A model generated the notes under the pieces. It saw nothing but the letters and a program-made list of their open reading frames with translations, was not told where the DNA came from and ran no database searches. A DNA stretch of 14,733 bases from a virus. Below are positions 10,579-14,733 of the stretch, in pieces (positions within the stretch are counted from its first letter, which is position 1; each line of letters opens with the position of its first letter). The translations under genes were made by a program, and so were the position numbers. The stretch is taken from the UHGV virus genome UHGV-1964037; one strand, given 5' to 3'.

Positions 10579-10799
10579 GCCACACCTCCCAGACGCTTAA
10601 ACATTTTTCCGGAGCAAAAGGCTATAAGCGGCATACTGACGCGGTAATTACGGCCCAGCGGTTCACAAATCACCTTCTGACATTCACGGTCAACCAGGCT
10701 AACACGTAGAACATGCCCTGCAGGCGTGGTGTACCACTGACCCGGACGAGGACAACGGAAAGTATGATTGGTAAACCGTTTGAAAATATTCCGGATCAT
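10575..10799 (-). CDS. hypothetical Cys-containing small protein, 74 aa
   Basis: ATG overlaps the Rha-domain gene stop (ATGA). Product MIRNIFKRFTNHTFRCPRPGQWYTTPAGHVLRVSLVDRECQKVICEPLGRNYRVSMPLIAFCSGKMFKRLGGVA has 4 Cys (possible metal-binding). Confidence 0.4.
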   Translation of the reverse strand: MIRNIFKRFTNHTFRCPRPGQWYTTPAGHVLRVSLVDRECQKVICEPLGRNYRVSMPLIAFCSGKMFKRLGGVA

Positions 10800-11944
10800 T
10801 TGCGCCCCCTTACCTCTGAAGGGTTCAGCGACAAATTTATGAGACTGGCCAGTAGCGCCGCGTCGTTGATGCGGTCATACAGACTTACAGCCAGCGGGGA
10901 TTCGGCTTTTGCCAACATGGGATAAAGCTGCTGCAGCCAGACCTTGTGGATTACCGACAGGTGGGAGTAAAGCACGCTGGCGTTATCTGCGGCATCGCTC
11001 AGCGTGGATGGCTTTGAAAGCAGTTTTTCCATCTGGTTAAAGGCATTGATGTATGCCTCTTTGAACTGGGCAGCACGTTTACCCGTGAAACCCATAGCAA
11101 GAAACGCAAAGCCGTCGCGGGTTATTTGATAGCAAGGTAGTTTGCGGCCTGTGCAATCGGTGTAATCACTCACCGAAAAATTGCGGGCAGTGAATGATGC
11201 GGAACATTCAAGCGTGCGGATCTTTTTCAGTACATCGTCATGACGTTTGGAGAAGAAGTTGGCAACAGCCAGGGATGAAGTAACAGCCTGACCATCAACG
11301 ATGGCAATTTCAGGTTGAGTGAGGGTTGGGATCGTAGCCATGATGGCAGCCTCCGTATGCAATGGATAACTTCCACCACCGGAAACGCCAATTTCGCTGG
11401 TGGTGAACTGAGCAGGGTTGGCGTAACCGGCGCATACGGAAACCGGCGCACCTTTCGGTGCCCCCACCCAGCCCACCATAATTTGGGTATAGCTGAGTTG
11501 TAGCAACAAAAAAGACGCTAACGCGCCAATTGTCGCCGTATGCAATTCCAGGACGCCAATCCCGACACCCGCTTTATAAGGTGCCTGAACAGTGTAACGT
11601 CCCGGAATGGCAGAATCAATGTGCTGGTGGTCCTTCACACTCAACAAAATCACGCCTGAATTTCCACAAAGGACTAAAGCACTCATGCTGGTAGTCTTTG
11701 CGAAGATAGATAACGCGCTGTGTTTCTGGCTCCCAACGAATAACATGAACATAAAGTCCTCTTCCGTCACGAAACCAGCGGTTAAGTTCCTGCACAACTC
11801 GCCCCCCACAGTCAGGTAAAGTTCTCTGTGGTTACTTACAGCCAGGTGATTTGGTAATCTGCATTCATGCCGTAACAACAGGTGTTCAGCGACGCTGACC
11901 ACCAGCTGTTGCGACAAACGGTTATTTGCCGTTAAACTATTCAT
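10796..11944 (-). CDS. Rha-domain phage regulatory protein with about 200-aa in-frame N-terminal extension of unknown function
   Basis: C-terminal 181 aa (from ATG 11339-11341, preceded by GGAGG) MATIPTLTQPEIAIVDGQAVTSSLAVANFFSKRHDDVLKKIRTLE...ITRDGFAFLAMGFTGKRAAQFKEAYINAFNQME is a clear Rha (Phage_pRha) domain. The frame stays open for a further 201 codons upstream to an ATG at 11942-11944 that overlaps the CII-like stop (ATGA). A 600-nt open frame by chance is unlikely, so the long form is annotated; the true start is uncertain. Confidence 0.5.
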   Translation of the reverse strand: MNSLTANNRLSQQLVVSVAEHLLLRHECRLPNHLAVSNHRELYLTVGGELCRNLTAGFVTEEDFMFMLFVGSQKHSALSIFAKTTSMSALVLCGNSGVILLSVKDHQHIDSAIPGRYTVQAPYKAGVGIGVLELHTATIGALASFLLLQLSYTQIMVGWVGAPKGAPVSVCAGYANPAQFTTSEIGVSGGGSYPLHTEAAIMATIPTLTQPEIAIVDGQAVTSSLAVANFFSKRHDDVLKKIRTLECSASFTARNFSVSDYTDCTGRKLPCYQITRDGFAFLAMGFTGKRAAQFKEAYINAFNQMEKLLSKPSTLSDAADNASVLYSHLSVIHKVWLQQLYPMLAKAESPLAVSLYDRINDAALLASLINLSLNPSEVRGRK

Positions 11945-12736: not shown

Positions 12737-12833
12737 ACGCCCTCCAAACTAAGTTTTATTAGATGCTAATTACAAATCTATCTTTGGTCAATAAAAACTA
12801 AGATTACTTAGCAATTCAAGAAATGGTGCTCCT
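12737..12833. promoter_or_regulatory. divergent cI/cro control region with two 14-bp operator-like palindromes and a candidate PR promoter
   Basis: CTAAGTTTTATTAG at 12749-12762 and CTAAGATTACTTAG at 12798-12811 (inverted CTAAG/CTTAG half-sites). Minus-strand promoter candidate TTGACC (12786-12791), 17 nt, TAGCAT (12763-12768) directed into cro. Confidence 0.55.
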
Positions 12834-13460
12834 ATGGAAACGGTTGGTCAGCGTATAAAAGCTCTGAGAAGAGTTACCGGAACGTCCCAGAAAGAATTGG
12901 GTAAATTTTGTGGAGTAAGCGACGTTGCTGTGGGGTACTGGGAGAAAGACATCAATACCCCTGGTGGGGAGGCACTTTCGAAATTAGCGAAGTTCTTCAA
13001 TACGTCAATAGATTACATTCTTTATGGTGCTGAGTTTGAAGGCAAACTCGTCACAAACATGCGCAGAGTTCCTGTAATATCGTGGGTTCAGGCTGGGCAG
13101 TTTACTGAGTGCAGGGCAGCAGAAGTGTTTAGTGAAGTGGACAAGTGGGTAGATACATCATTAAAGATTGGTGATAACTCATTTGCATTAGAGGTTAAAG
13201 GTGACTCCATGACTAACCCTAATGGCCTCCCAACAATACCAGAAGGCGCAACAGTGATTGTAGATCCAGATGCAGAACCTCGTCATGGAAAAATAGTCAT
13301 CGCTCGACTTGATGGAACAAACGAAGCTACAGTAAAAAAATTAGTCATCGATGGCCCTCAAAAGTTTTTAGTGCCATTAAATCCTCGGTATCCCAACATC
13401 CCTATCAATGGTAATTGCCTTATCATTGGTGTAGTCAAAGGAGTTCAATACGAACTCTAA
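12834..13460 (+). CDS. cI: CI-type prophage repressor (N-terminal HTH plus C-terminal S24 LexA-like autopeptidase domain)
   Basis: 208-aa product. N-terminal HTH (QKELGKFCGVSDVAVGYWEKDINTP), Ala-Gly cleavage site (WVQAGQF), catalytic Ser in GDSM and a Lys-Lys pair (TVKKLV), as in lambda CI/LexA. Confidence 0.85.
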   Translation: METVGQRIKALRRVTGTSQKELGKFCGVSDVAVGYWEKDINTPGGEALSKLAKFFNTSIDYILYGAEFEGKLVTNMRRVPVISWVQAGQFTECRAAEVFSEVDKWVDTSLKIGDNSFALEVKGDSMTNPNGLPTIPEGATVIVDPDAEPRHGKIVIARLDGTNEATVKKLVIDGPQKFLVPLNPRYPNIPINGNCLIIGVVKGVQYEL

Positions 13461-13514
13461 GACCTCTCTTCTCTAACTAAGGCACCGAACTAAGAAAAGT
13501 TTGGTGTTTTCTCT

Positions 13515-13543
13515 TGCCATAATAACTAAGTTAAGTTAGATTT
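13515..13543 (+). promoter_or_regulatory. candidate PL-like promoter overlapping a third operator-like site
   Basis: TTGCCA (13515-13520), 17 nt, TAGATT (13538-13543). The spacer and -10 overlap CTAAGTTAAGTTAG (13526-13539), which matches the OR palindrome CTAAGTTTTATTAG at 11 of 14 positions. Confidence 0.4.
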
Positions 13544-13650
13544 TATATCAAAGATAACGAACAGGCAGGACGCCCACGAAGTAGCCGCCTGGGGCATATA
13601 AAGTCTAGGGTGATTCGTTAGCAACAAAAAAGCGCCCTACAGGACGCTTA

Positions 13651-13662
13651 GCTCTTTAACAA
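13651..13662 (+). promoter_or_regulatory. boxA-like element GCTCTTTAACAA in the leader upstream of the 68-aa ORF
   Basis: Matches the E. coli rrn boxA core (GCTCTTTAACAA, from memory). Preceded by a small hairpin AAGCG..CGCTT (13630-13650) and followed by CAAGT..ACTTG (13677-13694). Confidence 0.4.
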
Positions 13663-13707
13663 TCTGGTCCCCATCAACAAGTAACTGATAACTTGAGGAG
13701 GTGTGAA

Positions 13708-13914
13708 ATGCACAAAACAGAACCCAAAATCGTCGCGCCCGGATACACAAATGAGGAAATTTACGAGTGGATGGCAAAGAAGCTGGCAGCTATAAACCAG
13801 CTTCGTGAAGTGCTGTCTTATCGACAGGAAACAATAGACTCCTTAAAAAAACTGGATCAGGAAATCACGGTTTTATCACAGGATGTTACTTTAGATATTG
13901 TGCAGACAAATTAG
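13708..13914 (+). CDS. hypothetical small protein, 68 aa, predicted helical/coiled-coil
   Basis: ATG at 13708 with strong GAGGAGG RBS 6 nt upstream. Product MHKTEPKIVAPGYTNEEIYEWMAKKLAAINQLREVLSYRQETIDSLKKLDQEITVLSQDVTLDIVQTN. No arginine-rich motif, so not an obvious N homolog. Confidence 0.55.
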   Translation: MHKTEPKIVAPGYTNEEIYEWMAKKLAAINQLREVLSYRQETIDSLKKLDQEITVLSQDVTLDIVQTN

Positions 13915-14320
13915 GATCCCATTCATTTTCGTCAAAATCATCAAAGTGATGAATTTGTGATCTCCAGTCTCGATAATCTAAAAATTTCTGGGCGGTTACG
14001 CTTATTTTATCAAGTGTGAGTTCATCCTGAATTGAAAGAAGAAGTTCATCAAATTTCATCTCATTAATCTGTTTTGGCATCCAGTGATGCTTCATCAGAA
14101 TAAGGTGAACCAGAGCCTTTTTCCCATTCAACTGATTATAGGGAGTGCCGAATTTCTTCCGGTGCTCATGTAAGACAAGGTCCAGAAGAGTAAGTAATGT
14201 TGCCCTTGATTCCACTTTGCTTATTTCGACTGATGACACTACCCCACTGATTTCAATGCCCCGATACTTTCCAACATTTTCACAGTGGGATTTGTACAGC
14301 GTGTAGATATTACCGGACAT
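13886..14320 (-). CDS. hypothetical protein, 144 aa, in AT-rich moron-like DNA next to cI
   Basis: ATG at 14318-14320 with AAGGAAAAG upstream. Product MSGNIYTLYKSHCENVGKYRGIEISGVVSSVEISKV...KFLDYRDWRSQIHHFDDFDENEWDPNLSAQYLK. Region looks about 40% GC against about 52% around it (by-eye estimate). The 3' end overlaps the convergent 68-aa ORF by 29 bp. Confidence 0.55.
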   Translation of the reverse strand: MSGNIYTLYKSHCENVGKYRGIEISGVVSSVEISKVESRATLLTLLDLVLHEHRKKFGTPYNQLNGKKALVHLILMKHHWMPKQINEMKFDELLLSIQDELTLDKISVTAQKFLDYRDWRSQIHHFDDFDENEWDPNLSAQYLK

Positions 14321-14335
14321 TTCTTTTCCTTTTGC

Positions 14336-14387
14336 GTTGTTGGGGATAACCAGATTAACCGAATCCTTGTTGTTGGGGAATAACCAG
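14336..14387. repeat. two direct repeats GTTGTTGGGGA(A)TAACCAG immediately upstream of the 144-aa gene
   Basis: 14336-14353 and 14369-14387, 18 and 19 bp, differing by a single A insertion, start-to-start 33 bp. In minus sense each contains TTATCCCCA or TTATTCCCCA, loosely DnaA-box-like. Confidence 0.85.
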
Positions 14388-14604
14388 GTCCACCTCGCCT
14401 GATGTGGCTAAAAGCAGGCACATAACAGCTAAGTATTTTTAACCAGAGAGAATCCTTAGCGTTGTGGTGAATGCGGCTCAGCGCACGCGGGTTAAGGTTG
14501 AGGCTGACAGTCGACCTTCTGTGGATACCCACCCGTCTGGTGTGCAACCTTCGCCAGGCACCGGGAGGCACCCGGCACCACAACTTTATGCTGTGTGTAG
14601 TCCT

Positions 14605-14651
14605 GGAGGTACCAGTTTGTACCCTTGCTTCCGGCTGGTACCGTCCTTTTT
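14605..14651 (+). terminator. terminator-like hairpin with T5 run on the plus strand
   Basis: GGAGGTACCAG / CTGGTACC(G)TCC stem with a 19-nt loop, followed by TTTTT (14647-14651). Lies about 25 nt downstream of the 22-bp element copy. Confidence 0.4.
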
Positions 14652-14733
14652 ACAAAACAGAGAAGAGCATCACCGGACGACGGGCTCATAACCCAATCCA
14701 TCCGGGCGGCTGCCACCGCAGGTGTTCTTCTCT

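Follow-up and report, generated by a model that had tools for sequence, protein, structure and literature searches.

A conserved convergent gene pair in the variable early-left slot of an SfIV/SfV-like lambdoid phage, with a possible role in prophage exclusion

The virus genome UHGV-1964037, analysed here as one stretch of 14,733 nucleotides (nt; hereafter the window), represents an SfIV/SfV-like lambdoid phage which over 13400-14733 is 98-99.9% identical to vB_EcoM-689R6, Kati, and SfIV. Two small open reading frames (ORFs) downstream of its cI repressor gene, ORF68 and ORF144, make up a two-gene cassette that is conserved and mobile and that occupies a variable slot; expression during lysogeny is shown for at least one orthologous pair. 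The reading favoured here is that of a prophage exclusion cassette, in which ORF144 would be a lysogen-expressed effector and ORF68 its modulator, with expression of the two coupled in antisense. This reading is tentative and falls a little short of an even chance, the role being its least secure step. The genes concerned are as follows (window coordinates).

13708-13914, plus strand: ORF68, 68 amino acids (aa), ATG at 13708, with a GAGGAGG Shine-Dalgarno sequence 7-8 nt upstream
14320-13886, minus strand: ORF144, 144 aa, with AAGGA ahead of the start
13886-13914: overlap of the convergent 3' ends of ORF68 and ORF144, 29 base pairs (bp)
12834-13460, plus strand: cI, encoding a Peptidase_S24 protein with an HTH_3 domain
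12736-12536, minus strand: cro

The coordinates and the GAGGAGG motif bear out the first-pass annotation of this DNA, which had described a plus-strand ORF68 with a strong ribosome-binding site and a minus-strand ORF144, the two overlapping by 29 bp at their 3' ends. That the pair is a module, as was also proposed there, is supported by its recurrence in distant relatives. Searches by tblastn with ORF144 uncovered intact but unannotated ORFs of 144 aa in Salmonella prophage ST64B and of 157 aa in Klebsiella phage KPP5665-2 (29% identity, E=5e-16); these converge on and overlap sb50 and a GP45-region gene, respectively, each with a YdfC-like core. The pairing was surveyed by finding diverged family members through exact-protein look-ups and then running an iterated hidden Markov model (HMM) over all ORFs of the fetched loci (labelled L below). 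A convergent, 3'-overlapping YdfC-like partner was present in eight of ten lineages carrying a gene of the ECs1072 family, to which ORF144 belongs (overlaps of 29, 32, 95, 74, 71, 95, and 113 bp), and one further partner copy was frameshifted. Starting from diverged small partners, three of four lineages (Citrobacter, Serratia marcescens, and Enterobacter) proved to hold an overlapping ECs1072-family gene (71-83 bp; E 1e-43 to 1e-49). Altogether, the pair occurs in 11 of the 14 sampled Enterobacterales lineages, at 20-35% identity and with overlaps of 29-113 bp.

Two genomic contexts recur. In the first, the pair lies just after cI and pL (the window, L007, and L017/18); in the second, it is flanked by a Q-type antiterminator gene on one side and the holin gene on the other (ST64B, the Klebsiella phages, L015/16, L020, L024, and L025). 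All eight phage records with a full-length large gene of the late type also hold the opposite-strand partner, and the two genes have diverged to a similar degree between ST64B and the Klebsiella phages (68-69% and 64-67% identity). Among complete Escherichia coli genomes, 410 of 5,426 (~7.6%) contain the full module, and the pair is carried by prophages of Salmonella, Klebsiella, Citrobacter, Enterobacter, Serratia, and Erwinia. Within the limits of the literature searched, both the pairing and the way it is distributed appear to be undescribed: no paper there mentions the ECs1072 family or follows up its ST64B member.

Where the overlap is long, it is dual-coding across the palindrome CTGGGATCCCAG, and both proteins consequently read W-D-P, a stretch that includes Trp134 (W134) of the large protein. 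Such overlaps (L003 3209-3279, L004 3197-3291, and L014 3862-3935) hold two palindromes, CTGGGATCCCAG and GGAAAACT(C/G)AGTTTTCC, and thus yield mirror-image conserved protein tails, (D/E)WDP(R/K)ENSxFL and GxLSF(P/L)WDP(S/N)P. The selected feature may be either the proteins or the palindromes in the DNA or RNA.

Annotation of these genes is uneven, and where the two proteins are annotated they are simply called hypothetical. ORF68 is unannotated in the GenBank record of SfIV, and the large gene is missing from the records of ST64B and the Klebsiella phage, as might be expected if one or both ORFs were not genuine and ORF68 were mere antisense of the ORF144 3' untranslated region or of the pL leader. 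This explanation has next to no probability and is effectively refuted by the conservation data: both ORFs are kept as proteins well past DNA-level similarity, both yield confident structural models (predicted local distance difference test, pLDDT, of 91 for ORF144 and 87 for ORF68), the NCBI Prokaryotic Genome Annotation Pipeline (PGAP) calls both genes in hundreds of genomes, and the ST64B orthologues of both are transcribed. In the SfIV record (KC814930, L001; 3638-3859 and 4184-4528), where ORF68 is absent from the annotation, a 114-aa gene, SfIV_35, is annotated antisense over an STnc100-like RNA and is probably spurious. The wholly unannotated ECs1072-family genes lie at 2845-3279 of L003 (ST64B) and 2818-3291 of L004 (KPP5665-2).

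Decay of the cassette was also observed. In a chimeric form, the ECs1072 N-terminus is fused to a tail-fibre-assembly C-terminus (163 aa, PF02413; among P0004 and P0014); the partner is frameshifted in L016 (3968-4204), and a C-terminal remnant of the large gene lies beside an intact partner in phage 118970_sal3 (34740-34922). The cassette has thus been lost or broken in some prophages. In some late loci, a DUF6731 gene and a companion, on the opposite strand, adjoin the pair in the Q-to-holin interval as a further antisense cargo (L020 924-2332 and L016 1133-2008).

The first-pass annotation stated that neither protein resembles a family that its author recognised. This calls for a qualification, since both belong to catalogued families (phrog_1744/YdfC-like for ORF68; phrog_5286/NF033230 for ORF144), although these have no assigned function. 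The HMM and structure searches that it had suggested placed both proteins in families and gave no fold match for the ORF144 model. ORF144 scores 157.8 bits (cut-off 70) with NCBIfam NF033230, "ECs1072 family phage-associated protein," its residues 4-144 aligning to positions 2-142 of the 142-position profile, and it matches phrog_5286 with 1.5e-90 over positions 1-144 of 144. The family comprises 76 representatives at the 50% level, nearly all of 145-155 aa. In an alignment of 55 diverse members, the conserved residues are R54, L64, G66, A69, H72, and W134; all are found in ORF144, and W134 is the sole invariant residue of the large protein. The model of ORF144 (pLDDT 91) is all-alpha with seven helices, and the structural search with it gave no match, which is consistent with a predicted orphan fold. 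Searches of Pfam, NCBIfam, PADLOC, and PDB sequences with ORF144, ORF68, and the 55 family members returned only families without assigned function, and no recognisable DNA- or RNA-binding domain was found in either protein.

ORF68 matches phrog_1744 with 4.8e-34 over positions 1-68 of 68 and is a YdfC/Sb50-like small protein, with 38% identity to YdfC of PPompW over its full length (E=9e-17). W21 and L46 are invariant among such proteins, for which Pfam and NCBIfam contain no curated model. The predicted structure is a single long helix spanning residues 15-67 (pLDDT 87). A profile search for the small partner retrieved 209 clusters across Enterobacterales, all annotated as hypothetical, and no function is assigned to YdfC in the literature searched. 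In PPompW/Qin-type prophages, including Qin of E. coli K-12, ydfC belongs to the dicA-controlled early-left dicB operon, preceding DicF and dicB. It thus resembles ORF68 in being an early-left operon gene downstream of a repressor gene, but it differs in lacking an ECs1072-like convergent partner.

The slot beyond cI had been likened to that of rexAB in lambda. This placement is not upheld, because a pL-like promoter and operators lie between cI and ORF68. The elements of this interval are listed below.

13489-13503 and 13525-13539, plus strand: cI operator-like sites of the type ACTAAG-N5-TTAG, matching the oR sites at 12748 and 12797
13514-13542, plus strand: candidate pL-like sigma-70 promoter, TTGCCA-17-TAGATT, with a 9/12 consensus match and overlapped by an operator
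13630-13649, minus-strand sense: GC-rich hairpin followed by a T-run, kept in L007 (4850-4887) and PhiR49_1
13651-13663, plus strand: rrn-type boxA-like sequence GCTCTTTAACAAT in the pL leader, unique in the window and kept in L007 and PhiR49_1

The window contains five operator-type sites, a number reached by none of 200 shuffles. Two of them bracket and overlap the pL-like promoter, which follows directly after the cI stop codon and probably drives ORF68 and the early-left operon. By its sequence context, then, ORF68 is the apparent first gene of a cI-repressed early-left transcript, in the position of lambda N, and only ORF144 appears to be an independent antisense unit. A third cI operator regulating ORF144 was considered and rejected, as the pattern is absent near 14421-14436 at one mismatch or fewer. 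Read on the minus strand, the hairpin at 13630-13649 is a predicted strong intrinsic terminator, likely that of the ORF144 transcript, past the 5' end of ORF68. In plus-strand sense, the same sequence is a leader hairpin just ahead of GCTCTTTAACAAT, which we take to be a boxA from its match to the rrn/P22-type consensus. The order of hairpin and GCTCTTTAACAAT is kept in relatives with other cargo (window 13630-13663, L007 4850-4887, and L009 1574-1611). The phage itself has no recognisable N gene, and hairpin and boxA together hint that the early-left transcript is protected in a way that depends on Nus factors but not on N. The pL leader sequence 13551-13710 folds no more stably than shuffled sequences (z=0.60).

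The proposal that this slot holds variable cargo is supported. The following relatives share its flanks and differ in cargo or carry none.

SfV: flanks shared at 13556-13619 and 14390-14733; cargo, the 98-aa orf33 (plus strand)
mEp460_4F5: flanks shared at 13400-13602 and 14390-14733; cargo, a 122-aa HTH_17 protein (plus strand)
PhiR49_1: flanks shared at 13556-13667 and 14336-14733; cargo, a minus-strand coiled-coil gene
ST64B: flanks shared at 13558-13598 and 14445-14733; cargo, none

Mosaic joints are seen at the cassette borders. The alternative cargos (orf33 of SfV, the HTH_17 gene of mEp460_4F5, and the coiled-coil gene of PhiR49_1) are not recognised defence genes, and the idea that the slot is a known defence hotspot was therefore set aside.

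Morons, or prophage accessory loci, are understood here as defined by Hendrix and colleagues. The cassette is absent from the same site in the four close relatives just listed. Its G+C content (GC) is 0.408 for positions 13461-14387, 0.386 for ORF144, and 0.386-0.411 across the cassette, versus 0.506 for the whole window, a moron-like base composition notwithstanding the GC of about 0.43 in the adjacent cI (0.432) and cro (0.433). The marked AT-richness noted in the first-pass annotation is therefore real in magnitude but not specific to ORF68 and ORF144, because the whole immunity region is AT-rich and the lowest-GC 927-nt stretch of the window begins at 13151. With respect to independent transcription signals, a terminator is seen on the ORF144 strand and the upstream element is kept except for its -10-like part, while ORF68 appears to depend on pL.

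Three sequence features mark the ORF144 5' region and the ORF68 leader.

14336-14353 and 14369-14387, minus strand: direct repeats ahead of ORF144, reading GTTGTTGGGG(A)ATAACCAG (minus-strand motif CTGGTTAT(T)CCCCAACAAC)
13664-13678, plus strand: inverted copy of the repeat motif, CTGGTCCCCATCAAC, in sense orientation for ORF68 and ~30 nt before its ATG
14390-14420, minus strand: conserved upstream element with the inverted repeat CCAC-N10-GTGG, common to L007, L014, L017, and L019

The two 18-19 bp direct repeats reported upstream of ORF144 are exact, and none of 200 shuffles gave two matches. They represent a local tandem duplication (period, 33 nt) affecting a portion of the 5' sequence that other family members have in single copy. 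The inverted copy had been overlooked; it brings the copies of the motif, CTGGT(N0-4)CCCCANCAAC, to three, so that each of the convergent genes is preceded by a copy in sense orientation. RNA reading through from pL could form a long-range duplex between 13661-13680 and 14337-14356. In PhiR49_1, the same block lies upstream of another minus-strand cargo gene, which inverted copies bracket in the same way; the block thus behaves as a portable 5' module or a recombination joint.

In early-left members of the family, the upstream consensus reads TGCCTG...(C)CAC(C/A)TCAGGC-N3-GGTGG-TATCTTGG.GTTC.CACACAACCAAG and lies ~45 nt ahead of the start codon; in it, an inverted repeat precedes an extended -10-like TGGTATCTT. 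By its conservation, the stretch at 14390-14420 is likely the promoter or operator region of ORF144. A 32-nt stretch at this position, with the inverted repeat inside it, is 91% identical to L005 2947-2978, immediately ahead of ydfC in PPompW. PPompW lacks an ECs1072 gene, and the stretch may be either a mosaic joint or a regulatory site common to both contexts. Terminator hairpins on the ECs1072 strand occur past the 5' end of the partner both in the window (+236) and in L007 (+416). In late-type loci, they occur at +17 to +46, inside the partner coding sequence, and show compensatory changes.

The first-pass annotation had suggested RNA sequencing of a lysogen to learn whether these genes are expressed like rex, and published data supply an answer for the ST64B pair. 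In a transcriptomic study, STMMW_20121 of ST64B stood out as a candidate accessory or regulatory gene, transcribed independently from its own mapped promoter and expressed in lysogeny (Owen et al., 2020; PMC7067206). According to Table S5 of that study, it occupies 2090066-2090500 (435 bp), is separated from the holin gene by 161 nt, and shares 71 bp with STMMW_20131 (360 bp). The ST64B pair in L003 has exactly this geometry, and the identification of STMMW_20121/STMMW_20131 (sb50) with that pair is therefore secure. The values in transcripts per million (TPM) tabulated there, which may not be strand-specific counts, are as follows.

STMMW_20121 (large gene): 60-270 TPM in 16 of 17 conditions
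STMMW_20131 (partner): 23-258 TPM across 17 conditions
ST64B holin gene: 0.3-33 TPM
sb49 (upstream gene): 1.5-7 TPM
BTP1 cI, for comparison: 35-289 TPM
BTP1 bstA, for comparison: 14-241 TPM

Both genes of the ST64B pair are thus transcribed in lysogens at cI-like levels, the larger from its own promoter, while the neighbouring lytic genes are silent. Under inducing peroxide and nitric oxide shocks, the partner rose from 108 to 148 and 258 TPM, and the large gene fell from 269 to 113 and 105 TPM (PMC7067206). For the phage type of the window itself, a weak array signal is available, a 2.1-fold change for ECs1072 in Sakai.

STMMW_20121 and STMMW_20131 belong to the same two families as the window proteins (large, 29% identity, E=5e-16; small, ~20%, E=9e-5; iterated HMM, E=2.6e-35) and share their convergent, 3'-overlapping geometry. 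They differ in position, standing at the head of the late region with sb49 on one side and the holin gene on the other, in their longer overlap of 71 bp, and in the C-terminal extension of the partner. Owen et al. did not note the family, the link to a partner, or the wider distribution, and gave no function (PMC7067206); the gene has accordingly been known from transcriptomics as one of few that are on in the lysogen, without being tied to any of these.

The ST64B data also bear on whether the two genes are merely unrelated neighbours, ORF68 being an ordinary early-operon gene and ORF144 an independent moron, with their pairing inherited as one mosaic block. Each family is indeed found without the other, YdfC in PPompW/Qin is a plain co-directional operon gene, and the mosaic joints at the cassette borders would fit such a history. 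Nevertheless, this reading seems improbable, given that pairing, orientation, and overlap persist down to 20-35% identity, across at least six genera, and relocation between two contexts; the two genes diverge at similar rates; long overlaps are dual-coding and include the only invariant residue of the large protein; and both genes are co-expressed in ST64B lysogens while adjacent genes are silent.

How an exclusion cassette of this kind might operate can be outlined. In the lysogen, transcription from the conserved upstream element at 14390-14420 would supply ORF144; the transcript, ~770 nt long, would run antisense over all of ORF68 and end at the terminator at 13649-13630, whereas ORF68 would be driven mainly by the cI-repressed pL. 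When the prophage is induced, or when a phage of the same type infects the cell, pL would raise ORF68 and oppose ORF144 through convergent transcription and RNA pairing, and the ratio of the ORF144 and ORF68 proteins would report the lysogenic versus the lytic state. ORF144 would act as a cytoplasmic effector against other phages or on phage development, and its helical partner, from a coiled-coil family, would bind it and modulate or neutralise it. The whole would be an exclusion module with built-in self-immunity, following a logic like that of P22 sieB/esc. The favoured role is drawn by analogy from sieB/esc and from the general use of such slots. No match to any defence model in PADLOC-DB v2.0.0, a library of 2023 that predates newer systems, was obtained with ORF68, ORF144, or their ST64B and Citrobacter relatives. 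As homology, fold, and defence models lend the role no support, confidence is moderate in the architecture and low in the function.

Several observations weigh against this mechanism. The large gene occurs without a partner in L006 and L019, so the partner is not obligatory, and a YdfC-like gene occurs without the large gene in Qin/PPompW, Arsenophonus, and phage SKA5. Both ST64B genes are on in the lysogen; strictly reciprocal expression is therefore not general. The supporting TPM values carry the uncertainty of strand given above, and the ST64B relatives are only ~29% and ~20% identical to the window proteins. Finally, although the inverted repeat of the upstream element is present in the window at 14390-14407, the extended -10-like TATCTT is not kept, and the ORF144 promoter is therefore not located here.

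The main rival interpretation, which may be right but is unlikely to be, holds that the pair is an internal regulator and not a weapon. It would guard against leaky read-through or tune antitermination or the choice between lysis and lysogeny, acting via RNA polymerase or an antiterminator or through convergent transcription. The placement of the pair is suggestive in this regard: it always has a regulatory gene (cI with pL, or Q) on one side and a downstream operon on the other, is antisense to that operon, and heads operons that must stay silent in the lysogen. Its neighbours are of the antitermination type, namely the boxA at 13651 and an STnc100-type leader RNA at 14431-14653 (also in L004 and L025); the inverted repeat in the upstream element would be expected of an operator; and Owen et al. 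leave "accessory or regulatory" open for STMMW_20121. Against a purely internal function stand the sister phages with the same flanks and no pair, which show the pair to be dispensable for the basic regulatory circuit, the inconstant adjacency of STnc100 (none in L007 or L017, and tRNA genes between in L025), and the lack of a recognisable DNA- or RNA-binding domain in either protein.

A toxin-antitoxin or addiction pair that stabilises the prophage, with the antisense overlap setting the ratio of the two products, is a still weaker candidate and quite improbable. Two small co-expressed genes with overlapping antisense transcripts, one of them encoding a single long helix typical of protein inhibitors, would suit such a system, as would the decayed or truncated copies in some prophages. 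Type II pairs, however, are co-directional, and their antitoxins carry a DNA-binding domain, whereas the present genes are convergent and no helix-turn-helix, ribbon-helix-helix, or AbrB domain was detected. No toxin-antitoxin or defence model was matched, and either gene is found alone, which would be unexpected for a toxin without its antidote.

A bolder version of the exclusion reading takes the pair as an unrecognised, widespread two-component system, in which an orphan-fold effector would act against infecting phages in exclusion or abortive infection, the coiled-coil protein would serve as antidote or sensor, and the conserved dual-coding overlap would be a switch that disarms the system once the resident prophage turns to lytic growth. 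This version is doubtful. What was an isolated hypothetical gene has become part of a defined two-gene cassette with a confident model, a few conserved residues, and a hypothesis of antisense-coupled, state-dependent expression. Should exclusion or defence prove correct, prophage-encoded immunity would gain both a new fold and a self-immunity design of a new kind; should regulation prove correct, the cassette would bear on the silencing of early-left and late operons in lambdoid phages without N.

Among known systems, sieB/esc/sas of P22 follows the logic proposed here. Reportedly, in work by Ranade and Poteete from 1993, sieB (of lambda as well) is an early-left exclusion gene expressed in the lysogen from its own promoter, and its action on the lytic growth of P22 itself is said to be cancelled by a small product and by antisense RNA from pL. 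Esc arises in frame from the sieB gene itself, and SieB is a membrane protein. In the window, by contrast, the same proposed logic would involve two separate convergent genes and a soluble protein, and Pfam, PHROG, and structure searches revealed no sequence or fold similarity to sieB/esc. The lambda rexAB genes are alike in being accessory cargo next to the repressor gene, a cargo that in the window is probably lysogen-expressed as well. They differ in that rexAB lies between cI and oL/pL and is co-transcribed with cI, whereas the window cassette lies inside the pL unit with ORF144 in antisense; no RexA- or RexB-type match was found in Pfam, PHROG, or PADLOC.

HK022 Nun is the product of the first gene after pL, an exclusion factor expressed in the lysogen of a phage without N; its gene is co-directional, and the protein is an arginine-rich RNA-binding one. 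ORF68 shares this first-after-pL position, but neither window ORF is arginine-rich or similar to Nun. BstA is a single larger protein, encoded co-directionally with cI and equipped with a DNA-encoded self-immunity element. The bstA gene of BTP1 is a lysogeny-expressed accessory gene directly after cI, with TPM values comparable to those of STMMW_20121 (Owen et al., 2020). The window pair has no sequence similarity to BstA and no match in PADLOC.

The right flank of the cassette contains a structured RNA that also has a counterpart in the late region of the window.

14431-14653, plus strand: STnc100-like RNA (RF02076, 38.4 bits, E=1.8e-6, below the gathering score), part of the conserved flank and not of the pair
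5463-5056, minus strand: Q-like antiterminator gene
4502-4297, minus strand: full-scoring STnc100 RNA, downstream of the Q-like gene

The early-left copy, closed by a terminator-like hairpin (GGTACCAG...CTGGTACC) and a T-run, is a diverged second copy that mirrors the full-scoring one. It is kept in SfV, SfII, mEp460, PhiR49, and ST64B, and in the Qin-like PPompW it lies between DicF and dicB. Loci of this type were located at L002 4138-4353, L005 4244-4453, L008 1852-1970, L009 2260-2483, L004 2528-2723, and L025 3807-4008. The closing helix has three compensatory pairs, and the hairpin CCGGG-AGGCA-CCCGG is invariant. These features suggest a leader RNA common to the early-left and late operons of phages without N, with a cis-acting role in termination or antitermination. 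STnc1310 of ST64B, which responds to induction, may be the counterpart of this copy. The RNA was rejected as an obligatory third member of the cassette, since it is missing beside the pair in L007 and L017, and in L025 tRNA genes lie between the two. Comparison of STnc100 with the HK022 immunity region gave a single shared 11-mer, GCGGGTTCAGG (window 4400-4385, minus strand; L011 4271-4261; E=0.27). In HK022, GCGGGTTCAGG falls in the pL-nun interval that holds putL, and it lies within a hairpin in both RNAs; a put-like nature of the STnc100-type RNA, or homology to HK022 put, is only a lead.

Other genes of the window include a CII-like gene, replication genes, and a Rha/Ash antirepressor gene preceded by C4 and isrK RNAs. 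The C4 antisense RNA (80.7 bits) and isrK (58.9 bits) lie directly upstream of the gene for the Rha/Ash-domain antirepressor (11396-11584 and 10796-11944, both on the minus strand), and the set resembles a second immunity circuit of the P1 immI type within the lambdoid early-right operon.

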